A stretch of 50,274 nt of DNA from Candidatus Levybacteria bacterium RIFCSPLOWO2_01_FULL_38_21. GTDB lineage: Bacteria > Patescibacteriota > Microgenomatia > Levybacterales > UBA12049. The position numbers and the translations under genes were made by a program. The notes beneath the pieces are model-generated. The model searched no databases and was not told the DNA's origin. It saw nothing but the letters and a program-made list of their open reading frames with translations. Of this stretch, positions 11,054 to 45,579 are shown piece after piece (positions within the stretch are counted from its first letter, which is position 1; each line of letters opens with the position of its first letter). The stretch is taken from contig MFOT01000007.1 of assembly GCA_001782475.1 (NCBI GenBank), positions 1-50,274 on the forward strand. Reading direction: 5' to 3'.

Positions 11054-11059
11054 AATTTT

Positions 11060-11113
11060 ATGACAAGAGTTGCGATAAACGGATACGGGAGAATAGGACG
11101 AGGGAACGGGTGA
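11060..11113 (+). pseudogene. Displaced gap 5'-end remnant (MTRVAINGYGRIGRGNG*)
   Basis: First 14 codons are 35/42 nt and 12/14 aa identical to the intact gap start at 12559. Confidence 0.9.
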
Positions 11114-12422: not shown

Positions 12423-12558
12423 GATGAAATTATAAAATAATTTTTTTGATTGTCAAGTATTTTTGTGCTGGTCTCCTAGATAGTCGTAATCAAGTCTTTA
12501 AGACAATATTCCAAACAAACTTATTGAATTGTTAAGTAAAAACTTGTATTCTTTAAAT

Positions 12559-13653
12559 ATGGTTAGAATTGCAATAAACGGATACGGAAGAATAGGAAGA
12601 GTGGCACATAGGGTAATTTTGGAAAAGCACTCACAAGAAATTGATGTTGTCGCAATAAACGCAGGTTCCTCAACAGATATTAGAGGATGGATGTACCTCT
12701 TAAAGTACGATACTGCGTATCATACTTTAAATTCAAAATTCAAAATTCAAAATTCAAAATTAAACGAGGAGGAGAAAGTAGGAATATTAAAAGATGGGAT
12801 AGGCTACCTCATCATAAATGATAAAAAGATTCCTGTTTTTTCGCAGAAAGATCCGAGTCTTTTACCATGGAGAGATTTAAATATAGATGTAGTAATTGAG
12901 TCAACAGGACATTTTACCAAAGAGGAAAAATTAAAACTTCATCTTGATGCCGGCGCAAAGTTTGTTGTTTTATCTGCACCCATTAGAAAAGGAGACCCTT
13001 CGGCAAGCTCAGGGCAAGGGGTTCCGACATATATTTTATCTGTCAACGCAAAAGATTACAAAGGAGAAAAATTAATTAATAACGCATCCTGTACCACAAA
13101 CTGTATTACGCCGGTTGCAAAAGTAATTGTAGATAATTTTGGAGTAGAAAAGGCAATGATGACAACAATACACGGATATACATCAGATCAGCGACTTCAG
13201 GACGGAGGACACAAGGACTTAAGAAGAGCAAGGGCAGCAGCGGAAAATATAATTCCAACATCAACAGGTGCAACAATTGCAGCTTCGCAGGCATTGCCGG
13301 AACTAGCAGGTATCTTTGCCGGACTTGCAATAAGAGTACCGGTTGCAGTTGGGTCTCTTTCGGATTTTACATTTCTTCTTAAGAGAGAAACTACCAAAGA
13401 GGAAGTAAATGAGATATTCAAAAGAGAAGCGCAGAAAGAGGAATATCAAGGAATACTTGAGGTAACAGAAGATCCAATTGTGTCAAGTGATATAATAGGC
13501 AATCCCCATTCTGCAATTGTTGATCTCTCGCTTACTCAGGTTGTTTTAGGAAATATGCTTAAAGTTATTGCCTGGTATGACAATGAATACGGATATTGCA
13601 ACAGGTTAGTTGAAGAAGTTTTAATGGTAGGGAATAAAATTCCTAATTTCTAA
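12559..13653 (+). CDS. gap: Type I glyceraldehyde-3-phosphate dehydrogenase (start moved to ATG 12559)
   Basis: INGYGRIGR, NASCTTNC, IPTSTGA, WYDNEYGY; promoter TTGAAT-N17-TATTCT. Confidence 0.97.
   Translation: MVRIAINGYGRIGRVAHRVILEKHSQEIDVVAINAGSSTDIRGWMYLLKYDTAYHTLNSKFKIQNSKLNEEEKVGILKDGIGYLIINDKKIPVFSQKDPSLLPWRDLNIDVVIESTGHFTKEEKLKLHLDAGAKFVVLSAPIRKGDPSASSGQGVPTYILSVNAKDYKGEKLINNASCTTNCITPVAKVIVDNFGVEKAMMTTIHGYTSDQRLQDGGHKDLRRARAAAENIIPTSTGATIAASQALPELAGIFAGLAIRVPVAVGSLSDFTFLLKRETTKEEVNEIFKREAQKEEYQGILEVTEDPIVSSDIIGNPHSAIVDLSLTQVVLGNMLKVIAWYDNEYGYCNRLVEEVLMVGNKIPNF
12729..12763 (+). repeat. In-frame heptamer array (AAATTCA)x4+1 in gap
   Basis: Encodes NSKFKIQNSKL. Confidence 0.9.
12995..13018 (+). 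repeat. Family A palindromic element in gap
   Basis: acccttcggcaagctcagggcaag, peptide DPSASSGQ. Confidence 0.9.
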
Positions 13654-18914: not shown

Positions 18915-21377
18915 ATGAAACTTGATGGAATAAGGAATAAAGTATTTTTGGATAGATATGCTTTAAAGGGAGTTAAGGGAGAGTTGCTTGAGAAATCTCC
19001 TGAGGAAATGTGGAAAAGAGTAGCAAGGGGTATTGCCGAAAATGAAAAGAAAATTAAAAGAGCTTATTGGAAACAAAAATTTTATAGTGTAATGAAAGAC
19101 TTCAAGTTTGTTCCCGGCGGAAGAATCCTCTCCGGTGCGGGAACAGATTATGAGGTGACCTATTTCAACTGCTTTGTTATTCCATCTCCAAAAGATTCAA
19201 GAGAGGGAATTTTAGAATCCTTAAAACAGCTGGTAGAGATTCAATCAAGATCAGGGGGAGTTGGTCTTAATCTTTCATCTCTAAGACCAAGGGGTGCCCG
19301 TGTTAAAAAAGTAAATGGAACATCCTCCGGTCCTGTAACTTGGGCAGGATTATTTTCATACGCAACCCATGATGTTGTCCAGCAAGGGGGAACAAGACGA
19401 GGAGCAACTATGCTTATGCTTTGGGACTGGCATCCGGATATTGAAGAATTTATAACTGTAAAACAGGACCTCTCCAAAATAAACGGAGCAAATCTTTCCG
19501 TTTGTATCTCCGATAGTTTTATGGAAGCGGTTAAAAAAGACAGCGATTGGGATTTGGTTTATCCGGACTTAGATGATCCTAAATACGATGCAAAATGGAA
19601 CGGAGAAATAGATGAGTGGAAAAAACTAGGCGGAAAAATAAAAGTTTATAAAATTGTAAAAGCCCGATATCTTTGGAATCTAATCTGCGAAGCTGCCTGG
19701 AGAAGTGCTGAGCCTGGGCTTCATTTTCTTCAAAGGTCAAATAAAAGAAGCAACACCTGGTATTTTGAAAAACTAATCGCCACAAATCCCTGCGGAGAAC
19801 AACCCCTTGGTGCTTGGGCTGTTTGTAATCTCGGTGCAATGAATTTGGCGGCCTATGTTAAAAATGAAAAATTCGATTATGAGAGCTTTTCGGAAGATGT
19901 AAAAGTTGCAATAAGATTCTTAGACAACGTTATAGATAAAACTTATCACTTCTTTAAACAGAACGAAAAAGTAGCCAAAGACATCAGAAGAACCGGACTT
20001 GGCATTATGGGCTTGGGAGATGCGCTTATTAAAATGAAAGTACGCTACGGATCAGATGAATCTCTTAAGATTATAGATAAAATTTTTGAGACTTTAAGAA
20101 ATAGCGCCTATGATGCATCTTCTGATATTGCAAAAGAAAAAGGAGCATTCCCAAAGTTCAATAAAGCAAAGTATTTGGAAGGTTACCATATTAAAGAGTT
20201 GACACCAGAAATTCAAAAAAAGATTGCAAAGCAGGGCATAAGAAATGCTGTTCTTTTAACTATTGCACCAACTGGAACAACTTCGCTTCTTTCGGGAGTG
20301 ACATCGGGGATTGAGCCGGTTTATGAATTCACCTTTATAAGGCGGGATAGAACCGGAGAGCACATTATGTATCATCCGTTTTTTGAAGAGTGGAAAAAAG
20401 AGAACCCTTCGGCAGGCTCAGGGCAAGTCCCGGATAGGCCTGATTATTTTGTCTGCGCAAATGATCTGACTCCACCTGAGCATGCGCAAGTTCAGGCAGT
20501 TGCGCAAAAATATGTAGATGCATCTATTTCAAAAACAGTGAATGCTCCAAACTCTCACACAGTCGAGGATGTAAAAACACTTTATATGGCAGCTTATGAC
20601 TTAGGACTTAAAGGGGTAACTTATATGAGAGATGGAAGTCGAGAGGGAGTTCTTTCAAGGGTTGAAGATAAAAAAGATCCTTCGGCAAGCTCAGGACAAG
20701 AGAAAATTACCAAACCGGTTATTCCACGCCCCATGCAGCTTGAAGGAGTGACTTATCAAATTCAAACACCTGTTGGAAAAACATACATTACTATTAATCA
20801 TAACGAGAACAAAGAGCCGTTTGAGGTTTTTATTACTATTGGAAAGTCAGGCTCTGATGTTGCGGCAATGGCAGATGCATTAGGCAGAATTATTTCCGTA
20901 AACCTTCGTCTCTTAGGAGGACTTTCTCCAAGAGAAAAAATAAGGGAGATTGTAGCCCAGCTTGCAGGAATTGGCGGAGCAAGAAGTGTCGGGTTTGGAA
21001 AAGATAAGGTGAGATCTTTACCAGACGGTGTTGCAAAAATACTTGCAATGCATTTTGGTTTCGCCGTAAATGGACAGGTTGAGGATAAAAATACTCAGGC
21101 CAATGGACAAGTCCAGCCCCAAGTATTAGCAAATGGGAACGGACCCTTTAATGGAAAAGCAGAAATTAAAACAGAAAACGAAAAAACCCCTGGGGTTGTT
21201 GAGATGCAACAGCTGGCACTGGTTGGAAAAGGAAGCGGACTTATGGCAGAAGACAGTAGTCCGTATGAGATAGCTGGAACAAGCCTTTATGATCTTTGTC
21301 CTGAATGCGGGGCGGGGAGTCTGGCATATGAGGAAGGATGCAGAAAATGCTACAGTTGTGGTTATTCAGAGTGCTAA
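18915..21377 (+). CDS. nrdJ: Adenosylcobalamin-dependent (class II) ribonucleotide reductase with C-terminal TSCPD/zinc-ribbon region
   Basis: FVPGGR, NCFV, QGGTRRGA, TNPCGEQ, CNLG, APTGT, ISKTVN, CPECG...EGC..C..CGYSEC; no beta subunit nearby. Confidence 0.93.
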   Translation: MKLDGIRNKVFLDRYALKGVKGELLEKSPEEMWKRVARGIAENEKKIKRAYWKQKFYSVMKDFKFVPGGRILSGAGTDYEVTYFNCFVIPSPKDSREGILESLKQLVEIQSRSGGVGLNLSSLRPRGARVKKVNGTSSGPVTWAGLFSYATHDVVQQGGTRRGATMLMLWDWHPDIEEFITVKQDLSKINGANLSVCISDSFMEAVKKDSDWDLVYPDLDDPKYDAKWNGEIDEWKKLGGKIKVYKIVKARYLWNLICEAAWRSAEPGLHFLQRSNKRSNTWYFEKLIATNPCGEQPLGAWAVCNLGAMNLAAYVKNEKFDYESFSEDVKVAIRFLDNVIDKTYHFFKQNEKVAKDIRRTGLGIMGLGDALIKMKVRYGSDESLKIIDKIFETLRNSAYDASSDIAKEKGAFPKFNKAKYLEGYHIKELTPEIQKKIAKQGIRNAVLLTIAPTGTTSLLSGVTSGIEPVYEFTFIRRDRTGEHIMYHPFFEEWKKENPSAGSGQVPDRPDYFVCANDLTPPEHAQVQAVAQKYVDASISKTVNAPNSHTVEDVKTLYMAAYDLGLKGVTYMRDGSREGVLSRVEDKKDPSASSGQEKITKPVIPRPMQLEGVTYQIQTPVGKTYITINHNENKEPFEVFITIGKSGSDVAAMADALGRIISVNLRLLGGLSPREKIREIVAQLAGIGGARSVGFGKDKVRSLPDGVAKILAMHFGFAVNGQVEDKNTQANGQVQPQVLANGNGPFNGKAEIKTENEKTPGVVEMQQLALVGKGSGLMAEDSSPYEIAGTSLYDLCPECGAGSLAYEEGCRKCYSCGYSEC
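20404..20427 (+). repeat. Family A element in nrdJ, copy 1
   Basis: acccttcggcaggctcagggcaag, peptide NPSAGSGQ. Confidence 0.9.
20677..20700 (+). repeat. Family A element in nrdJ, copy 2
   Basis: atccttcggcaagctcaggacaag, peptide DPSASSGQ. Confidence 0.9.
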
Positions 21378-21564: not shown

Positions 21565-21620
21565 ATGCTTCGACAAGCTCAGCATAGCCCGAAGCATAGT
21601 GAGCAAGGAGTCGAACTATG
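21565..21620. repeat. Pair of family A elements (forward + reverse) ending in pduO ATG
   Basis: atgcttcgacaagctcagcat; catagt-gagcAAGGAGtcga-actATG. Confidence 0.8.
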
Positions 21621-22148
21621 CCAATTTATACAAAAGCAGGGGATAAAGGACAAACAGGACTTTTTTCTGGAAAAAGAGTTTCAAAAGCAAACCCTCGGAT
21701 AGAGGCAATCGGTGCAGTGGATGAATTAAACAGCACGATAGGGTTCGCCCTATCGCAAATCCGAAATCCGAAATCCGAAATCCGAAAAGAATTAATAAAG
21801 ATTCAAAATGATCTATTTGAAATCGGCGCTGCGTTGGCAAATCCCAAACAGAAGATTAATCTTTCAAATAGAACAAAGGAATTCGAGAATATGATTGATA
21901 AAATGACTAAAGAATTGCCTCCGCTTTTTAACTTTGTTCTTCCTGGAGGAGGAATGGTAGGTTCATCTTTGCATATCGCAAGAACAGTTTGCCGTCGAAC
22001 GGAAAGAAGAATTGTTGAGTTATCTAAAAAAGAAAAAGTTCAAGGCGACCTCATTATTTATATAAATAGACTTTCCGATCTTTTTTTAACTATGTCAAGA
22101 TATATAAATTATAAAGAAAAACGGAAAGAGATTATTTGGAAAACCTAG
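21618..22148 (+). CDS. pduO: ATP:cob(I)alamin adenosyltransferase, PduO type
   Basis: IYTKAGDKGQT, GAVDELNS, FVLPGG, ARTVCRRTER, INRLSD. Confidence 0.93.
   Translation: MPIYTKAGDKGQTGLFSGKRVSKANPRIEAIGAVDELNSTIGFALSQIRNPKSEIRKELIKIQNDLFEIGAALANPKQKINLSNRTKEFENMIDKMTKELPPLFNFVLPGGGMVGSSLHIARTVCRRTERRIVELSKKEKVQGDLIIYINRLSDLFLTMSRYINYKEKRKEIIWKT
21757..21784 (+). repeat. In-frame perfect heptamer array (AAATCCG)x4 in pduO
   Basis: Encodes QIRNPKSEIR. Confidence 0.92.
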
Positions 22149-26290: not shown

Positions 26291-26992
26291 ATGAAGAGTA
26301 AGGTGGTTTTGGCAGTTGGGGCACACCCCGATGATATAGAATTTGGAGCTTCTGGAACCATAGCAAAATGGGCGCAAGAGGGAGCAGAGTGTTATTATCT
26401 AATCTGTACAGACGGAAGCAGGGGATCCACAGATCCAAAGATGACTCATAAAAGACTTGTTCAGGTTAGAAGAAAGGAGCAGGAGGGAGCAGCAAAAATT
26501 TTGGGCCTTAAAAAGGTCTATTTCTTAGACTATACAGATACTCTTTTAACTGCAGACTACGCTCTAAGACGCGACATAGCAAAAATTATAAAAATCATAA
26601 AACCGGATATAGTGGTTACCATGGACCCAACTTTTTACTACTCCGAACAGTTTAATTTTATAAATCATACGGATCATAGAGCCGCAGCCCTGGCTACTAT
26701 GGATGCATGTTACCCCTTGGCTCGGGACAGATTAACATTTCCTGAACATGAAAAAGAGGGCTTAACGCCACATCGCGTCGAGGAGATTTGGTTTATTGGT
26801 TTTGATAAAACTAATTTGCTGATAGATATTACAGACACTTTTGTTAAAAAAATTGAAGCTATTACTATGCACAAGAGTCAATTTGAAAACATGGAGCATG
26901 TTATAAAAAGAGTAGAGGAGAGAGCAAGATATTTCGGAATTACAAAGGGTTGTAAATACGCAGAAAACTTCGTTCGGGTTGAGCTTTTTTAA
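26291..26992 (+). CDS. PIG-L/LmbE family deacetylase
   Basis: AHPDD, TDGSRG, RRKEQ..A, HTDH, HKSQ. Confidence 0.9.
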   Translation: MKSKVVLAVGAHPDDIEFGASGTIAKWAQEGAECYYLICTDGSRGSTDPKMTHKRLVQVRRKEQEGAAKILGLKKVYFLDYTDTLLTADYALRRDIAKIIKIIKPDIVVTMDPTFYYSEQFNFINHTDHRAAALATMDACYPLARDRLTFPEHEKEGLTPHRVEEIWFIGFDKTNLLIDITDTFVKKIEAITMHKSQFENMEHVIKRVEERARYFGITKGCKYAENFVRVELF

Positions 26993-27849
26993 AGATCTGA
27001 AAGAGTTGATGTTTCTTTGCCTCTTTCCCCAACATAATTAAGATATCTTTCGGTTGTAGAAAGTCTTTTATGTCCTAAAATTTTAGAAAGTAAAACCAAA
27101 GAAGCACCCTGTTTTAAGTGATGGGCAACAAATGTGTGTCTTAAATCATTTACCCTTGCATCTTTTACTTCTGCCAATCGGAAATACCTTTCCATAGAAG
27201 TTCTGATATTTCTTACCAAAAATGGTCTCCCAGATTTTGTGATAAAAAGATGACTGTCCTTTGTCTTTGGTCTTATTTCCAGATATTTTTGGAGCGCCTC
27301 CTGCGCCCTTTTATTAAGCGGAATTTCTCTTTCTTCGTGTTTTTCGTATGCTGCTATGTGCAAAGAATCCTTTTTACTATCGGAAACCCTGAGGTTCGCC
27401 AGTTCTCCAATTCTTATCCCTGTTTGAAGTAAAAGTTCAATGATTGCAAACATTCTGGGGTCGTTTCTTGCTGCGTCTCGCAAGGCTCTATATTCGGTTG
27501 GCGTGAGTATTCTGGGTGGTGCAAGCTGATATCTTGGGTGGGCGACTAAAAGAGAAGGGTCATCGGTAACATATTCGTTGATTTTAAGAAATCTATAAAA
27601 AGTTCGAGTAGAATTAATCTTTCGTGAAATTGATTTTGGGGTGTAACCGTCTTTCTGCATTTTTGCCAAAAATGCCTCTATGTCCTCTTTGGTTACTTCG
27701 TGAATTTGATTTTTCGCAACCTCTTCCAAAAACGAAATAAGTTGCTCTATATCTTTGCCATATGCTACAATTGTAGAGTTCGAATGCTTTTTGTTTTTAA
27801 GAAAATTTTTAAACTCTTGGTGGGCATCCCGGAGCTTTATGGTTTTCAT
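26989..27849 (-). CDS. XerC/XerD-like tyrosine recombinase
   Basis: SAM-like N-domain; TGIRIGEL, NDLRHTF (N in place of first H), LGH..LSTTERY. Confidence 0.88.
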   Translation of the reverse strand: MKTIKLRDAHQEFKNFLKNKKHSNSTIVAYGKDIEQLISFLEEVAKNQIHEVTKEDIEAFLAKMQKDGYTPKSISRKINSTRTFYRFLKINEYVTDDPSLLVAHPRYQLAPPRILTPTEYRALRDAARNDPRMFAIIELLLQTGIRIGELANLRVSDSKKDSLHIAAYEKHEEREIPLNKRAQEALQKYLEIRPKTKDSHLFITKSGRPFLVRNIRTSMERYFRLAEVKDARVNDLRHTFVAHHLKQGASLVLLSKILGHKRLSTTERYLNYVGERGKETSTLSDL

Positions 27850-27895
27850 ACTTCGATTTCACTCAGTATGATCCTGAGCAGAGTCGAAGGATCAT
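27847..27895. repeat. Pair of family A elements ending in the recombinase ATG
   Basis: Minus strand atgatccttcgactctgctcaggat-catact-gagtgaaatcga-agtATG. Confidence 0.8.
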
Positions 27896-27963
27896 ACAAA
27901 AGTGATGTCCTATAATATCAATAAAATTAACTTTAGTCAAGATGGGAATATTGAATACTTAGT

Positions 27964-28305
27964 ATGAAAAAAATCTTATTTATTGTTGCTATTGTAGCTT
28001 CAATTTTTATTATTAATAGCCTTGTTCGGTCTATCTACGATTTATGGAAAAAGCAAGATTTAATAACTCAAGCCCAAAAAGAACTAGAGAGAGAAAAACA
28101 GGAAAATTATGACCTAAAGTCTAAATTATCCAAGGCTCAAAATAATCAATTCGTAGAAGAGGAGGCTAGAAATAAATTATTGCTTGTAAAACCGGGCGAG
28201 GAATCGGTGATTATTCCTCAAGATTTACTTTCATCCCAAAGTTCGCAAAGAAAAAATATTGATACGCACCCAAACTTTAGAAAATGGTGGGATTTATTCT
28301 TCTGA
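27964..28305 (+). CDS. Septum formation initiator (FtsB/DivIC-like)
   Basis: N-terminal TM, coiled coil, FVEEEARNKLLLVKPGE; ends PNFRKWWDLFF. Confidence 0.82.
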   Translation: MKKILFIVAIVASIFIINSLVRSIYDLWKKQDLITQAQKELEREKQENYDLKSKLSKAQNNQFVEEEARNKLLLVKPGEESVIIPQDLLSSQSSQRKNIDTHPNFRKWWDLFF

Positions 28306-28778: not shown

Positions 28779-28823
28779 AATACTCGATCAAATTGACAGA
28801 AATGGTGGGATTTATTCTTCTAG
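28779..28823 (+). pseudogene. ftsB-like 3'-end remnant, copy 2
   Basis: NTRSN*QKWWDLFF*; 28800-28821 identical to 28282-28303. Confidence 0.9.
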
Positions 28824-29516: not shown

Positions 29517-29552
29517 AGTAACTGGAGAAAGTGGTGGGACATATCTTTCTAG
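29517..29552 (+). pseudogene. ftsB-like 3'-end remnant, copy 3
   Basis: SNWRKWWDISF*, codon-for-codon with PNFRKWWDLFF*. Confidence 0.8.
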
Positions 29553-29910: not shown

Positions 29911-29938
29911 GCAAAGACTCTCTCCTATCAAAGCCTTG

Positions 29939-30010
29939 TGCCAACGGCAGGATTCGAACCTGCGACCCGACGCTTATGAAACGTCTGCTCTGCCCCTGAG
30001 CTACGTTGGC
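29939..30010 (-). tRNA. tRNA with CAU anticodon (probably elongator Met)
   Basis: GCCAACG/CGTTGGC-A; gacgt-ttCATaa-gcgtc; gcagg-ttcgaat-cctgc. Confidence 0.9.
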
Positions 30011-30068
30011 TCAGCTTATATTTTAACAGTTGGACAGATTGAGGTCAAATTGGTATAATAAACCTACA

Positions 30069-30137
30069 CGCGGGGTAGTGTACAGTGCACATGAGGCTCA
30101 TAATCTCATAGGCTAGGCGCAACTCCTAGCCCCGCAA
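30069..30137 (+). tRNA. Initiator-like tRNA-Met (CAU), atypical
   Basis: CGCGGGG/CCCCGCA-A with C1:A72 mismatch; tgagg-ctCATaa-tctca; ctagg-cgcaact-cctag; TATAAT at 30054. Confidence 0.75.
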
Positions 30138-30223
30138 CCGATTCGACGCGCCTTTCGCTTCTCTCAAGGCTTGCTCACGGCAAGCTCTTGCGCGGCGAAT
30201 TGGTGCTGAACCTGCCGAAGCAC
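30138..30223. repeat. Two family A elements (long-loop forward, short reverse) upstream of GIY-YIG gene
   Basis: ccgattcgac[25 nt]gctcacggcaag; gtgctgaacctgccgaagcac. Confidence 0.7.
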
Positions 30224-30270
30224 ACTTCAGGATGCCCAACGGACAACATTGTTTTTGGTGAAATGAGTTT

Positions 30271-30516
30271 ATGTGGTTTGTATATATTCTTCTCTGCGAA
30301 AATGGAAATCTTTATACAGGTAGTTCAAATAACCCTCAGAAGAGATTTATATATCATAGAGACGGAAAGGGTGGAAGATATACCCGTTCGCATAAACCAA
30401 TAAAACTACTTTACACCGAGCAACTTCAAACCAAAACAGATGCTTTGAAAAGGGAAAGTCAGATTAAAGGTTGGAGTAGGGAAAAGAAGATAAAAATTTT
30501 GAAACTAGAAATTTGA
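30271..30516 (+). CDS. Stand-alone GIY-YIG nuclease (UPF0213-like)
   Basis: FVYIL.C.NGNLYTG...R...H..GKGGRYT, ALKRE.QIKGWSR.KK. Confidence 0.92.
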   Translation: MWFVYILLCENGNLYTGSSNNPQKRFIYHRDGKGGRYTRSHKPIKLLYTEQLQTKTDALKRESQIKGWSREKKIKILKLEI

Positions 30517-30519
30517 AAC

Positions 30520-30559
30520 TTCCAATCCCTGCCCTTCGACAGGCTCAGGGCAAGCAACA
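30520..30559 (+). repeat. Canonical family A element inside a probable tRNA-fMet 3' remnant
   Basis: ttccaatccctgccc[ttcgacaggctcagggcaa]gcaaca. Confidence 0.7.
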
Positions 30560-30562
30560 CAG

Positions 30563-30597
30563 AACCTCGGATAAATTCCCTATTCATATCCGGGGTT
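30563..30597. terminator. Hairpin between convergent genes
   Basis: aacctcggata/tatccggggtt 11-bp stem with one G-U. Confidence 0.45.
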
Positions 30598-30627
30598 TAA
30601 GAATTTTCATAATCCGCTTATATAGTT

Positions 30628-41464: not shown

Positions 41465-42631
41465 GTGAAAATAGCTATAGTACACGACTATATAAAGGAA
41501 TACGGGGGAGCGGAGAGGGTTTTGGAAGCTCTTCATGAAATTTTTCCTGATGCGCCGGTCTATACCACAGTTTTTTTACCTGAATTTCTTGGGCCTCACG
41601 AAAACAGATTTAAAAACTTTAAAATAAAGACTTCGTTTCTTCAATATTTACCATTTAAGGAAAAACTAATAAGTCCGATTCGTGTAATCGCGCCATTGGT
41701 CTTTAAATCTTTCAATTTCTCGGGCTTTGACGTTGTTATTGTTTCTGCAACAGGAGCCTATTCTCCAAATGGAAAATGGAAAATGGACAATGGAAAATTT
41801 CCAATCCATATATGTTACTGCCATACTCCTCCAAGATATCTTTATGGTTTTGCAACAGCCAGGGAGTGGAAGAATAATTTAATTTTCCGAGTTTTTGGAG
41901 AGCTTGCAAATCATTTTTTAAGGTTAGTTGATTATAAAAGCTCCCAAAATGTAGATTACTTTATTGCAAATTCAAAAAATGTTGCAGGGAGGATCAAGAA
42001 GTTTTATAGAAGAGATGCTGTTGTAATTTACCCGCCGGTTGACACTAATTCAAAATTCAAAATTCAAAATTCAAAATTGAAAGTCAAAAGTCAAAAGGAT
42101 GGATATTTTCTGGCGGGGGGAAGGATAGCACGGCCAAAAAACATTGAGCTGATAATCAAAACTTTTGAAAAACTTAAACTTCCTCTTAAAATCTTCGGGC
42201 GAAGTTTTGGAGGCCTCGATATCGAAAGCGAATCACGAATCACGAATAACGAATCACGAATCGAATATCTTGGAGAAGTAAGCGATGAAGATAAGTACGA
42301 GCTTATGAGAAATGCTACGGCATTTATTTTTGCTTCAGTTGATGAGGATTTCGGCATTACTCCGGTTGAGGCAATGAGCGTTGGAACACCGGTTATCGCG
42401 TATCGATCGGGTGGAGTAGTAGAATCGGTGGTTGACCCTTCGACACGCTCAGGGCAAGCGGTGACGGGAATATTTTTTGAAGAATTATCGCTCGAGAGCT
42501 TGAGTAAAGCAATCAAACAATTTAACAATCTAACAATCAATCCGCAGGATTGCATTTCCCAAGCCCAAAAATTCTCAAAAGAGAGGTTTAAGAGAGAAAT
42601 AAAAGAGTTTGTGGGGAAAATATATGCCTGA
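41465..42631 (+). CDS. GT4 family glycosyltransferase (start moved to GTG 41465)
   Basis: KIAIVHDY...GGAERV, YCHTPPRYLY, VIYPPV, EDFGITPVEAM..GTPV. Confidence 0.93.
   Translation: MKIAIVHDYIKEYGGAERVLEALHEIFPDAPVYTTVFLPEFLGPHENRFKNFKIKTSFLQYLPFKEKLISPIRVIAPLVFKSFNFSGFDVVIVSATGAYSPNGKWKMDNGKFPIHICYCHTPPRYLYGFATAREWKNNLIFRVFGELANHFLRLVDYKSSQNVDYFIANSKNVAGRIKKFYRRDAVVIYPPVDTNSKFKIQNSKLKVKSQKDGYFLAGGRIARPKNIELIIKTFEKLKLPLKIFGRSFGGLDIESESRITNNESRIEYLGEVSDEDKYELMRNATAFIFASVDEDFGITPVEAMSVGTPVIAYRSGGVVESVVDPSTRSGQAVTGIFFEELSLESLSKAIKQFNNLTINPQDCISQAQKFSKERFKREIKEFVGKIYA
41767..41794 (+). repeat. In-frame heptamer array (AAATGGA)x4
   Basis: Peptide NGKWKMDNG. Confidence 0.88.
42047..42095 (+). repeat. 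In-frame heptamer array (AATTCAA)x4 plus 3 degenerate units
   Basis: Peptide NSKFKIQNSKLKVKSQ. Confidence 0.9.
42229..42262 (+). repeat. In-frame heptamer array (CGAATCA)x5
   Basis: Peptide ESRITNNESRI. Confidence 0.9.
42435..42458 (+). repeat. Family A element in glycosyltransferase
   Basis: acccttcgacacgctcagggcaag, peptide DPSTRSGQ. Confidence 0.9.
42510..42538 (+). repeat. In-frame 8-mer array
   Basis: caatcaaa caatttaa caatctaa caatc, peptide AIKQFNNLTI. Confidence 0.75.
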
Positions 42632-43559
42632 GTTACCAGAGGTTGAGACAATTAAATTAGGGCTTCAAAAATATCTCATTGGACATCGGATTGAAGGGGT
42701 TGATGTTAGGCTTCCCAAAATTGTTCAGGGGAATGTCAAAGATATTGAGGGCGGTAAGGTTATCGCCGTCAGACGATTTGGAAAAGGGCTGGTCATTGAT
42801 CTTGATAACGATTACTCAATCGCAATTCACATAAAACTCACAGGACAACTCATCTATAGAGGACCAAATCTTAGACAAAAAGTAAAACTGTCCAAAAAAG
42901 TCGGGGGAAGCTTACCTAATAAGTGGACTCACGTGATATTCAAACTCAAAAGTCAACCCGTTCGACAAGCTCAGGACAAGAAGACAAAAGTTAAAAGTGC
43001 AACTCAAAACTCAAAAGCTACAGATGCTTATCTTTATTACAATGATATTCGGCAGTTTGGATGGATTAGAATAGTTGAAAGTTCAAAGTTAAAAGATTTA
43101 AGCTTCTTCAGAGACTTGGGGCCAGAGCCTCCAGTCACAATGTCGATAGGGGTTCAACCCCTTACGCTAGAATTGTTTAAAAAAATAGTCAATTCATTAA
43201 ACACGGCAATAAAACCACTTCTTATGGATCAAAAGAGAATTGGGGGAATTGGAAATATTTATGCAAACGATGCTTTATTTGATGCTGAAATAGATCCAGG
43301 AAGAAAAGCAAAAAGCTTAAGTGATGCGGAGATTAAAAAACTTTATAACTCTATTCTTAAGGTTCTCAAAATCGGCCTTAGAGAAGAGGGGGCATCTGAA
43401 CTTAGTTTTGTAAATGCATTAGGAGAAGAGGGGAGTTATCAGAATCATTTTCTTGTTTATGGAAGGGAAGGTCAGAAATGTAAAAGGTGTAACGGAATTA
43501 TAAAAAAAATAATCTTGGGTGGCCGCGGAACCTACTTCTGCCCAAACTGCCAAAAATAA
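42624..43559 (+). CDS. mutM: Formamidopyrimidine-DNA glycosylase
   Basis: MPELPEVET, RRFGK, DIRQFG, GIGNIYA, C..C...GRGTYFCPNCQ. Confidence 0.96.
   Translation: MPELPEVETIKLGLQKYLIGHRIEGVDVRLPKIVQGNVKDIEGGKVIAVRRFGKGLVIDLDNDYSIAIHIKLTGQLIYRGPNLRQKVKLSKKVGGSLPNKWTHVIFKLKSQPVRQAQDKKTKVKSATQNSKATDAYLYYNDIRQFGWIRIVESSKLKDLSFFRDLGPEPPVTMSIGVQPLTLELFKKIVNSLNTAIKPLLMDQKRIGGIGNIYANDALFDAEIDPGRKAKSLSDAEIKKLYNSILKVLKIGLREEGASELSFVNALGEEGSYQNHFLVYGREGQKCKRCNGIIKKIILGGRGTYFCPNCQK
42938..43016 (+). repeat. Heptamer array with nested family A element (42957-42980) in mutM
   Basis: attcaaactcaaaagtcaa[cccgttcgacaagctcaggacaag]aagacaaaagttaaaagtgcaactcaaaactcaaaa. Confidence 0.85.
43148..43162. repeat. 15-bp palindrome in mutM
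   Basis: aggggtt-c-aacccct, peptide GVQP. Confidence 0.5.
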
Positions 43560-43615: not shown

Positions 43616-43694
43616 CTAGTACTGAGCGCAGCCGAAGTGCTAGTTTTTTATGCGTTCGACAGACTCAGCACAAGTGCGTTCGGCGAGCTTACCA
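43616..43694. repeat. Cluster of three family A elements upstream of pyrH; first is terminator-like
   Basis: ctagtactgagcgcagccgaagtgctag+T6; tgcgttcgacagactcagca; gtgcgttcggcgagcttacc. Confidence 0.7.
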
Positions 43695-44502: not shown

Positions 44503-45579
44503 ATGTTTCTCAAGTCCCTCACTCTTGCCAATTTTAGAAACTACGAGAAAGCAGATTTTAAATTCACAAAAGACATAGCAGTGCTTATTGGTCCCAATAC
44601 TTGCGGGAAAACGAATTTTGTAGAAGGTGTTTTCTATCTTGCAATGGGAAGAAGTTTTAGGGCAGAAAAAGATTTAGATTTGATAAGTTTTGGAAAAAAT
44701 ATTGCCCGAATTAAGGCAGAACTTGCGGAAAAGAAAGAGCTTTTTGTTATTATCTCCAAAGAGGAATTAGATACTCGAGAAACCATCCGCAAAAAATATT
44801 TAGTAAATGGAGTCTTGAAAAAACGCTCGGATTTTGCAGGAAATTTGGTTTGCGTGCTTTTTTCTCCCGAGGATTTGGACATTATAATCGGTTCTCCGGT
44901 CTTACGAAGAAGATTATTGAACGATCTTTTAGAGCAAGTAGACAGAGACTATAGAAACGCGATCATAGCATATACAAAAGCACTTCGGCAAAGAAACGCA
45001 CTTTTAGACAGAGTGAAAGAGTCGGGAGTAAGAAATGAGAAACTTTTTGAATACTGGGATAATCTTCTAATACAAAACGGAGCGGTTATTACAAAAAAAA
45101 GAGGAGAATTTATTCAGTTTATCAATAACTTCCCAAAAGAAATCTTTGATTTTGTCGCTTTTTATGATAAAAGTATAATCTCAAGCGCAAGACTCATACA
45201 ATATAAAGACGCGGAAGTTGGAGCAGGGGTAACTTTGGTCGGTCCCCACAGAGATGATATATCTTTTCATATGTATCCTTCGACAGGCTCAGGACAAGCA
45301 ATAACTCATGATATAAAATCATTCGGGTCAAGAGGGCAACAGAGGCTTACAATTTTACAGCTTAAATTAATTGAGCTCTCATTTATAGAAAAACTTACGG
45401 GAGAGCGCCCAATACTTGTTCTTGACGATATCTTTTCAGAACTTGACAGCGATCATATAAGACTTGTCCTTGAGATGATCAAAGATCAACAAACTTTTAT
45501 TACAACAACTCACAAAGAATTTCTGGATAAAAAAACCATAGAAAACTCTGAAATGATAGAATTGAAAGAAAGAAGTTAA
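44503..45579 (+). CDS. recF: DNA replication/repair protein RecF
   Basis: NFRNY, GPNTCGKTN, FSPED, GPHRDD, SRGQQR, LDDIFSELD. Confidence 0.95.
   Translation: MFLKSLTLANFRNYEKADFKFTKDIAVLIGPNTCGKTNFVEGVFYLAMGRSFRAEKDLDLISFGKNIARIKAELAEKKELFVIISKEELDTRETIRKKYLVNGVLKKRSDFAGNLVCVLFSPEDLDIIIGSPVLRRRLLNDLLEQVDRDYRNAIIAYTKALRQRNALLDRVKESGVRNEKLFEYWDNLLIQNGAVITKKRGEFIQFINNFPKEIFDFVAFYDKSIISSARLIQYKDAEVGAGVTLVGPHRDDISFHMYPSTGSGQAITHDIKSFGSRGQQRLTILQLKLIELSFIEKLTGERPILVLDDIFSELDSDHIRLVLEMIKDQQTFITTTHKEFLDKKTIENSEMIELKERS
45276..45298 (+). repeat. Family A element in recF
   Basis: tccttcgacaggctcaggacaag, peptide PSTGSGQ. Confidence 0.9.

Follow-up and report, generated by a model that had tools for sequence, protein, structure and literature searches.

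A widespread Patescibacteria cassette of a stand-alone GIY-YIG nuclease gene and a conserved hairpin at the 3' ends of tRNA genes

Analysis of a 50,274-nucleotide (nt) stretch of DNA from Candidatus Levybacteria bacterium RIFCSPLOWO2_01_FULL_38_21 (MFOT01000007.1, positions 1-50,274; hereinafter, the window) shows that the locus around a small, stand-alone GIY-YIG nuclease gene belongs to an old cassette found widely in Patescibacteria, of which it is a single copy. The site of the cassette is the 3' end of a tRNA gene, in most cases that of the initiator tRNA and, in one clade, that of tRNA-Gln. It combines the nuclease gene with copies of a palindromic element, the family A hairpin, and comparison of related loci supports a strong but one-sided association between the two. 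The original prediction, in which two family A copies were placed upstream and the most canonical one downstream of an 81-amino acid (aa) GIY-YIG protein gene, agrees with our data. The proposal that the nuclease mobilizes the palindromes, as in the partnership of repetitive extragenic palindromic (REP) sequences with REP-associated tyrosine transposases (RAYTs), is suggested by this analogy and is weighed below.

Family A hairpins ahead of GIY-YIG genes

The family A hairpin consists of a conserved 13-14-nt loop, TTCGRC-N(1-3)-GCTCA, and a complementary stem of 3-9 base pairs (bp) that co-varies freely. With at most one mismatch allowed, the 13-nt loop pattern matches the window 14 times against an expectation of 1.12 (standard deviation 0.99), and none of 100 shuffled sequences reaches 14; the perfect loop copies, 8 in number, are all on the plus strand, and 10 copies in the 50,274 nt possess a stem. 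When loop matches were collected from the window and 80 related loci regardless of the stem, 48 of the 118 were enclosed by a stem of at least 3 bp, compared with 2 of 118 in a control in which the 3' flank was shifted by 7 nt, and at least 10 stem triplets are in use (CCC/GGG 23 times, TCC/GGA 10, TGC/GCA 5, CAC/GTG 3, and others). Thus, the loop is conserved whereas the stem co-varies, and the hairpin is a selected structure.

The related loci (L001-L080; 1,146,741 nt in total, the window not being one of them) come from other Patescibacteria genomes and represent the 80 best of at least 558 GIY-YIG relatives among at least 601 pattern matches in genome contigs; open reading frames (ORFs) in these loci are the calls of a simple ORF finder rather than annotation. 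They contain 69 stemmed hairpins, of which 27, distributed over 24 loci, fall in the 150 nt ahead of the GIY-YIG start codon, 24 of these 27 in the minus orientation, as the window copy at 30203-30223. Among the remainder, one (in L036) is found within 150 nt downstream of the gene, none within the gene and 41 elsewhere (1,103,009 nt). The hairpin density is accordingly 2.27 per kb in the upstream zone compared with 0.037 per kb elsewhere, a 61-fold difference (Poisson P 1.6e-38). Of the 41 hairpins elsewhere, 32 are in ORFs, which leaves only 9 for the 118,712 nt of other intergenic DNA; relative to the latter, the enrichment of the upstream zone is still about 30-fold. A weight matrix built from non-adjacent copies only recovers, across thresholds, 25-32 copies upstream and 1-2 downstream of the gene, with 24-63 at other places. 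Hence, of the predicted enrichment of the motif near GIY-YIG homologs, the upstream part stands (27 copies vs 41 in 1.10 Mb), at a density well apart from that of intergenic DNA in general, whereas the downstream part does not.

Beside the GIY-YIG gene of the window, the stem detector finds 2 copies, or 3 when the long form described below is included. The copy downstream of the gene begins at the 14th nt past the stop codon and is indeed the most canonical one (Table 1): its stem is the joint longest among the plus-strand copies, tied with that of the copy at 21569.

A cassette at the 3' ends of tRNA genes

Comparison by eye of the 150 nt ahead of the start codons reveals a shared module that begins directly past the tRNA discriminator base. 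It consists, in this order, of a closing triplet (CAC in most cases, and CCA, CAA or CCG in the subtype to which the window belongs), TTCGAC, a length-variable inner hairpin with co-changing sides, GCTCA, and the complementary triplet. This long form of the hairpin is followed by a strand complementary to its first 13-14 nt, by a short reverse hairpin and, 5-55 nt farther on, by the ATG; the three triplets co-change between loci (CAC/GTG, CCA/TGG, CAA/TTG, TAC/GTA; by eye). In the window, the long form is closed by the triplet pair CCG/CGG, with ATTCGAC and GCTCA as its loop halves and the inner hairpin at positions 30169-30185; the layout recurs in L003, L044 and L077, and its CAC/GTG form was recognized by eye in about 25 further loci. 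The helix between 30138-30151 and 30190-30203 is found in the minimum-free-energy fold, and its equivalents in other loci change along with their partners (by eye). The long and short forms are tied to each other by L066 and L071, where the first element is the short form. Altogether, the module can be folded into a branched structure; no Rfam 15 family matches 30140-30270 at E<=10.

The module is specific to the tRNAs that precede GIY-YIG genes. An element of the TTCGAC type is present within 16 nt of the end of 22 of the 28 GIY-linked tRNAs, compared with 3 of the 121 other tRNAs in the same loci, so it belongs to the cassette itself rather than being a trailer common to tRNAs. Since both orientations of the hairpin occur within one module, recognition at the DNA level appears likelier than at the RNA level.

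In the window, the GIY-YIG start codon lies 132 nt past a tRNA gene that is missed by the Rfam tRNA model even at E<=10. The window tRNA and 14 relatives (15 sequences) fit one cloverleaf in which 8 of the 22 pairs are maintained through two-sided changes; we therefore consider it a real initiator tRNA gene, and its interpretation as a pseudo-tRNA was dropped. The initiator tRNA of this lineage has the D arm GTGTA..TGCAC, and in several genomes its T loop lacks the usual TTC (CGCAACT, CGCGATT, TGCGATT); besides the window, this odd set includes L003, L009, L013, L014, L030, L033, L035, L037-L040, L048, L050 and L056. A called tRNA is present within 300 nt of the GIY-YIG gene in 38 of the 80 loci, against a background of 0.127 tRNA per kb; 28 of these tRNAs precede the gene on the same strand, 9 precede it on the opposite strand and 8 follow it. 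As ARAGORN misses several of the odd initiator tRNAs in the loci, a signature and a pattern for the tRNA-end/TTCGAC junction were added, which brings the loci with a tRNA or junction beside the GIY-YIG gene to 46 of 80, and the counts depend on these home-made detectors.

In L049, L052 and L054, the stop codon of the GIY-YIG gene falls inside the following tRNA-Met gene, among its first 9-10 nt, and the cassette thus spans the entire gap between two tRNA genes. In L019 and L041, only the 5' half of an initiator tRNA is recognizable, about 30-120 nt upstream of the GIY-YIG start on the minus strand; the divergence from the tRNA begins in the anticodon loop, suggestive of a truncated gene or an intervening sequence.

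Displaced tRNA ends are a further recurrent feature. The downstream palindrome of the window had been read as interrupting the 3' end of an initiator tRNA, and this reading is reasonable: the hairpin flanks, 30520-30534 and approximately 30553-30561, resemble a T loop, T stem and acceptor 3' strand, although the remnant has diverged from the end of the resident tRNA and is old. Parallels exist in L014, which has a homologous split remnant past the GIY-YIG stop codon, and in L067, where an exact copy of the locus's own tRNA-Gln 3' end is split by a long-form hairpin in reversed orientation. In a search of the 300 nt before the gene against the 150 nt after it, the longest exact flank repeat reaches at least 13 nt in 5 of the 80 loci (L004, 16 nt; L034, 13; L036, 13; L057, 18, immediately past the stop codon; L067, 13), and each of these repeats is a tRNA 3' end; 4 of 1398 control pairs reach 13 nt. 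It is the tail alone that differs: the mean longest common substring of the flanks equals that of the controls (8.0 vs 8.0). Similarly, a 7- or 8-mer of the initiator tRNA end occurs within 100 nt past the stop codon in 9 of the 80 loci, compared with 1.0 expected (P 1.2e-6). No ORF other than the GIY-YIG gene lies between the repeats, so the cassette encodes no integrase of its own. With flank repeats of the tRNA end and two tRNA species involved, the cassette looks like an insertion, and both the neighboring tRNA and its displaced 3' end are seen again in the related loci.

Resolution of the GIY-YIG tree is low (82 columns, with 45 of its 77 inner branches open). Nevertheless, the window falls among rows from Levybacteria, and rows of the Levybacteria, Daviesbacteria and Parcubacteria types cluster, although many record titles are unreliable. 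In particular, L006, L007, L011, L012, L016 and others are titled 'uncultured Gammaproteobacteria', 'Pseudomonadales' or 'Planctomycetia' despite neighboring genes of the Patescibacteria type, and such titles look unreliable. An initiator-type tRNA is found upstream on the same strand in 22 rows of the tree (21 loci and the window) and tRNA-Gln in 7 loci; 5 of the 7 tRNA-Gln-linked genes belong to one supported clade, and the label requires 4 changes on the tree, a value that none of 500 shuffles matches. About 30 loci have a gene for a Xer-like recombinase near the GIY-YIG gene, and in many there is also a nearby mur ligase gene. To judge from the tree and the gene neighborhoods, the cassette is old and mainly vertically inherited, having undergone rearrangements and switched its tRNA at least once.

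Stand-alone GIY-YIG proteins of the UPF0213/Slx1-like type are apparently common among bacteria, and the conserved Tyr-Tyr motifs, Arg and Glu of the GIY-YIG fold are active-site residues. The ORF at 30271-30516 is intact and matches PF01541 with an E value of 1.5e-19 (residues 1-74 on positions 1-77 of the 78-position profile), which leaves no room for a second, DNA-binding domain in a protein of 81 residues. All 22 homologs in an alignment share Y5, Y15, R25, H29 and E62. Relatives at E<=1e-5 account for 260 of the 261 candidates, and the 119 relatives listed, the window's own protein excluded, are 65-81% identical and nearly all 80-106 aa long; an ORF of 78-93 aa is present in 79 of the 80 loci, the remaining one, L077, having an early stop. 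A second GIY-YIG-like match occurs in L003, L037, L051, L060 and L069, in L003 and L037 on the opposite side of the initiator tRNA. The NCBIfam model of group I intron endonucleases gives 19 bits, below the threshold (cut-off 56), and the phage collection yielded only distant relatives (27 records, each below 60% identity). The sole relatives with solved structures, 1ywl (5e-14) and 1zg2 (5e-13), are both named hypothetical UPF0213 proteins. In the passages on this family in a 2006 survey, these two are named as bacterial Slx1-family structures, and prokaryotic Slx1-like members are described as the minimal stand-alone form (PMC1564403). The protein is thus predicted to be a minimal nuclease of the UPF0213/Slx1-like family.

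Table 1. Features of the window (positions in the window; a dot, no strand given)
Feature	Position	Strand	Basis and remarks
Hairpin copy in GAPDH gene	12996..13014	+	in frame, PSASSGQ; 8-residue insertion vs solved GAPDH 1hdg
Hairpin copy in ribonucleotide reductase gene, site 1	20405..20423	+	PSAGSGQ; absent from L008 and L003 orthologs
Hairpin copy in ribonucleotide reductase gene, site 2	20678..20696	+	PSASSGQ; diverged form also in L003, L008
Intergenic inverted hairpin pair	21565..21621	.	pair detector; forward 21565-21585, reverse 21594-21621
Xer-like recombinase gene	26989..27849		XerC model 171 bits, under the model cut-off
Intergenic forward motif plus reverse hairpin	27850..27897	.	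detector; 9-bp stem; between Xer-like recombinase gene and divIC
Canonical tRNA-Met	29938..30010	-	ARAGORN
Putative sigma-70-type promoter-like site	30031..30059	+	consensus match alone: TGGACA-17 nt-TATAAT, TG ahead of second hexamer, 11/12 consensus positions
Initiator-type tRNA-Met(CAT)	30069..30139	+	ARAGORN; non-canonical D arm, T loop CGCAACT; acceptor ends initiator-type
Long-form family A hairpin	30138..30185	+	by eye, from comparison with L003, L044, L077; starts at tRNA position 74
Distal strand complementary to 30138-30151	30190..30203	+	12 Watson-Crick pairs, 1 G-T, 1 mismatch of 14; abuts next hairpin
Short reverse family A hairpin	30203..30223	-	stem GTGC/GCAC (4 bp), loop 30207-30219; 1 mismatch; 48 nt before start codon
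Stand-alone GIY-YIG nuclease gene, 81 aa (UPF0213/bacterial Slx1-like)	30271..30516	+	Pfam, PDB relatives
tRNA-3'-end-like remnant	30520..30561	+	sequence reading; T-loop-like TTCCAAT, CCCTG, CCC, GCAACAC; split by hairpin 30530-30552
Canonical family A hairpin	30530..30552	+	0 mismatches; 5-bp stem, loop TTCGACAGGCTCA at 30535-30547
Possible weak terminator of cassette	30565..30598	+	by eye; 9-bp hairpin then TTT
Hairpin copy in GT4 glycosyltransferase gene	42436..42454	+	PSTRSGQ; same site occupied, diverged, in L008, L011
Hairpin copy in Fpg gene	42961..42973	+	loop pattern; different frame, VRQAQDK
Intergenic reverse-plus-forward pair	43630..43671	.	pattern match, pairing by eye; weaker copies
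Hairpin copy in recF	45276..45294	+	PSTGSGQ

Hairpins inside genes and the surroundings of the cassette

Family A copies are also found within protein-coding genes of the window. All six coding copies are in the sense orientation, and 5 of the 6 encode the peptide P-S-[AT]-x-S-G-Q; the insertions inside conserved genes are single, in frame and about 18-24 nt long. At site 1 of the ribonucleotide reductase gene, the window is 18 nt longer than L008, and the orthologs that lack the copy are 75% (L008) and 65% (L003) identical. In the related loci, 23 of the 32 coding hits are in the sense orientation and 17 of those 23 in the same frame, as judged by the simple ORF finder, some of the one-mismatch coding hits being probably chance matches. 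Taken together, the GAPDH insertion, site 1 of the reductase gene and the split remnant of L067 show that the hairpins were mobile in the past.

In-frame insertions recur in L003, L008, L011, L017, L018, L023, L042, L052, L054 and L071, with peptides such as DPSASSGQ, DASASSAQ and NPSTSLRA, and orthologs at times share the insertion site, as in ribonucleotide reductase and the GT4 glycosyltransferase. The intergenic copies tend toward inverted pairs, of which the strict detector recognizes one in the window, the others having been paired by eye. The layout at 27850-27897 is that of the module ahead of the GIY-YIG gene, here without a nuclease gene.

Apart from the cassette, the window encodes core genes alongside families typical of the candidate phyla radiation (CPR), DUF5667, DUF5671 and DUF5654 (Pfam), and has a G+C content of 37.7%; none of its 51 scanned ORFs matches a Pfam transposase. 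Its nearest relatives among the fetched loci, by both the DNA similarity of the neighboring genes and the GIY-YIG tree, are titled Levybacteria. The promoter-like site ends 9 nt before the initiator tRNA, and the hairpin at 30565-30598, which has a 13-nt loop, was not called in a terminator scan of the window.

Several observations on the flanking DNA are recorded here in their own right. On the minus strand, 3' of the canonical tRNA-Met, the G+C-rich and ORF-free segment 29832-29937 holds pieces resembling T arms and acceptors, one of which is a 14-nt match to the 3' end of the L040 tRNA-Met (CCCACCCCTGGTAC); these pieces could represent additional displaced tRNA ends. The final 22 nt of divIC (28282-28303, encoding K-W-W-D-L-F-F) are repeated exactly at 28800-28821, 518 nt downstream, and a third copy with 77% identity is found at 29529-29550, 729 nt beyond the second. 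The repeats enclose two small cassettes, a DUF4926 pair and a toxin-antitoxin-like pair of Gp49 and helix-turn-helix (HTH) genes, and divIC in L003 is without both; the arrangement looks like serial insertion at the 3' end of a gene with duplication of that end, beside the gene for the Xer-like recombinase. This recombinase gene lies 2.4 kb from the GIY-YIG cassette. Finally, a 44-nt stretch (11059-11102), 1.5 kb upstream of the GAPDH gene, is 84% identical to the start of that gene (12558-12601) and may be a fragment of a second GAPDH copy.

The possible role of the nuclease and its relation to known systems

The reading that we favor, while regarding it as somewhat short of probable, is that the nuclease acts on the family A hairpins. 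It is favored because deep lineages have the loop in common but differ in the stems, because the presence of both orientations in one module points to recognition of DNA rather than RNA, because the module can form a branched fold, and because the eukaryotic Slx1 relatives are structure-specific nucleases. Under such a mechanism, the cassette would be transcribed from the tRNA promoter and freed by cleavage at the tRNA 3' end; the nuclease would be structure-specific and act naturally on a hairpin extruded by these palindromes or on the branched DNA that they form. If such structures were cut and then repaired by the host, the hairpins could be spread or homogenized, and the same cuts and repair could retain the cassette at tRNA ends, a functional partnership of the REP/RAYT kind on a different nuclease fold. 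In its full form, this would amount to a new palindrome-plus-nuclease type in Patescibacteria, in which a minimal Slx1-like GIY-YIG nuclease, placed at position 74 of the initiator tRNA gene and driven by the promoter of that tRNA, cuts hairpin or branched DNA arising from a 20-25-nt palindrome and host repair copies that palindrome, including into in-frame sites in essential genes; we consider this rather unlikely.

A number of results weigh against a nuclease that drives these hairpins. Downstream enrichment is absent, both by the detector (1 of 80 loci, P 0.36) and by the weight matrix at five thresholds, so that flanking on two sides in the manner of RAYTs is peculiar to this window and is not general. 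Because the loci are homologous, the upstream enrichment reflects a conserved architecture, and the 24 loci are not independent events; likewise, the roughly taxonomic tree and the synteny with the Xer-like and mur genes imply that the cassette was transmitted mostly vertically. In 29 of the 80 loci, no tRNA, junction or hairpin was detected, so the GIY-YIG gene persists without the module. Beyond the cassette, relatives that carry the GIY-YIG gene contain roughly 1 stemmed copy for every 27 kb, compared with 10 in the 50 kb of the window. A hairpin beside the gene is no significant predictor of dispersed copies in that locus (counts of 11, 13, 15 and 41; odds ratio 2.3, P 0.12), few copies being available for a comparison of loop variants between the two, and the fold energy of 30069-30270 is unexceptional (z -1.75; 7 of 200 shuffles as stable). 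To our knowledge, furthermore, GIY-YIG enzymes are hydrolytic, and strand-transfer chemistry is not known for this fold.

The alternatives differ in how much of the evidence they accommodate. The hairpins adjacent to the gene could be purely cis-regulatory, acting as a terminator or processing signal of the tRNA or as a leader that hides the ribosome-binding site in a vertically inherited tRNA-GIY-YIG unit, with the dispersed copies having spread by other means. The taxonomic gene tree, the partly syntenic neighborhood and the lack of downstream enrichment are all compatible with such a role, as is the appearance, by eye, of the first element in six loci from Microgenomates (L002, L009, L021, L028, L034, L040), where a stem is followed by a T run as in an intrinsic terminator; in L065, L080, L060, L034 and L002, the 3' arm of the reverse hairpin (GAAGGA/GAAGGG) is located 4-16 nt before the ATG, the position of a Shine-Dalgarno sequence. 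A hairpin that terminates transcription or covers a ribosome-binding site, however, needs no loop conserved across class-level lineages with a free stem; in the window it is 48 nt from the ATG, clear of the likely ribosome-binding site; other tRNAs do without the element; and the in-frame insertion of the same loop into unrelated genes is left unexplained. We regard this explanation as possible, although doubtful. Coincidence, suggested at most by the motif-richness of the window (14 matches per 50 kb), can hardly be entertained: at 10 stemmed copies per 50,274 nt, about 0.06 would be expected within 150 nt of one given gene, and the juxtaposition recurs in 24 of the 80 other loci with the P value given above.

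Another explanation treats the cassette as a small integrative module that a site-specific tyrosine recombinase supplied in trans, for instance the Xer-like neighbor, inserts at the 3' ends of tRNAs, with the duplicated tRNA end serving as an att-type core and the hairpins as recombination sites or passengers. The 13-18-nt direct repeats of the tRNA end that bound the cassette in 5 of the 80 loci, and the remnants past the stop codon in 9, are what such integration would leave, and the proximity of the Xer-like gene in the window and in about 30 loci, the further hairpin pair beside that gene and the divIC-end repeats around two toxin-antitoxin-like cassettes (28800, exact; 29529, 77%) are in line with it. 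The proximity, however, may be mere conserved synteny; the divIC repeats hold no family A hairpin; the recombinase scores 65 bits on the integron-integrase model (cut-off 265, not reached); initiator and Gln tRNA ends would require two specificities; and the in-frame copies within genes are again unexplained. We consider this course of events unlikely. The protein could, alternatively, be a housekeeping enzyme of tRNA or other nucleic acids that is co-expressed with tRNAs or acts on them, the hairpins being tRNA-derived debris whose loop halves give the impression of T and D loops. This would suit the strong conservation of the family, the tRNA or tRNA-end junction beside the gene in 46 of the 80 loci, and a link to tRNA modification through COG4123, presumably the tRNA m6A37 methyltransferase in current naming. 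Bacterial Slx1-like domains occur in fusions or operons with COG4123 and with TrmH-type tRNA methyltransferases, and the passages concerned in the 2006 survey suggest a role in RNA metabolism (PMC1564403). Duplicated tRNA ends are not accounted for by a housekeeping function, however, and the element is specific to GIY-linked tRNAs, while 29 of the 80 loci lack a nearby tRNA; we consider this explanation very unlikely.

The nuclease-on-hairpin reading invites comparison with several known systems. REP/RAYT systems (REPtrons, REPINs) comprise dispersed palindromic repeats, often in inverted pairs, beside a single-copy, domesticated-looking HUH/Y1 transposase gene. The family A repeat is likewise over-represented, palindromic and dispersed, forms intergenic inverted pairs and has copies beside a nuclease gene, which, in the window alone, they flank in inverted orientation. 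The partner here, however, is an 81-aa GIY-YIG hydrolase and not an HUH Y1 transposase of the IS200/IS605 type; across the loci the repeats are one-sided (24 of 80 upstream, 1 of 80 downstream); many copies are intragenic and in frame; and the cassette is linked to the 3' end of a tRNA. Palindromic elements that enter genes without disturbing the reading frame are known from Rickettsia (elements of approximately 100-150 nt) and from the GC clusters of yeast mitochondria, and the family A palindrome resembles them in being tolerated in conserved genes as a short hydrophilic loop; it is far shorter than the Rickettsia elements (about 18-24 nt) and, unlike them, has a candidate partner gene.

Free-standing GIY-YIG homing endonucleases, such as the seg genes of phage T4, one of which lies within a tRNA region, carry a DNA-binding domain. 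Similarly to these, the gene analyzed here is a small, selfish-looking GIY-YIG gene amid conserved genes or tRNAs, but its product is a catalytic domain alone, and its weakly resolved tree appears roughly taxonomic rather than sporadic. Genomic islands integrate at tRNA 3' ends with duplication of the att site. The cassette, too, starts at a tRNA 3' end, is followed by a 9-18-nt copy of that end and retains a functional tRNA; the insert, however, is only about 400-450 bp and encodes no recombinase. It further differs from integron cassettes in that the neighboring recombinase is XerC-like and not an integron-type integrase. The closest likeness in sequence is to the bacterial Slx1-like/UPF0213 proteins 1ywl and 1zg2, which belong to the same family, have the same size and are free of added domains; the passages on this family in the 2006 survey describe no link to palindromic repeats or tRNA ends (PMC1564403). 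Our literature search, which left most subscription journals outside its scope, yielded no account of the cassette or of a connection, in this sense, between GIY-YIG proteins and palindromic repeats, tRNA gene ends or these bacteria; by their titles, the hits on RAYTs concern fungal mitochondria and other unrelated subjects.

For stand-alone GIY-YIG proteins of the UPF0213/Slx1-like family, the PDB entry names and the survey passages give no function (PMC1564403), and their reproducible, statistically strong association with one defined DNA hairpin, and with the ends of tRNA genes, provides a concrete candidate substrate. The analysis also establishes the unusual initiator tRNA of this lineage, overlooked by the Rfam model, as a real gene. 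Even if the nuclease is not the driver of the hairpins, the cassette is a useful marker that accounts for GC-rich stretches and spurious small ORFs beside tRNA genes. If the nuclease does drive the hairpins, the cassette would represent a second, independent invention of the REP/RAYT lifestyle by unrelated chemistry, and it would both explain a class of short in-frame insertions in the proteins of CPR bacteria and be a source of their recurrent P-S-x-S-S-G-Q loops.

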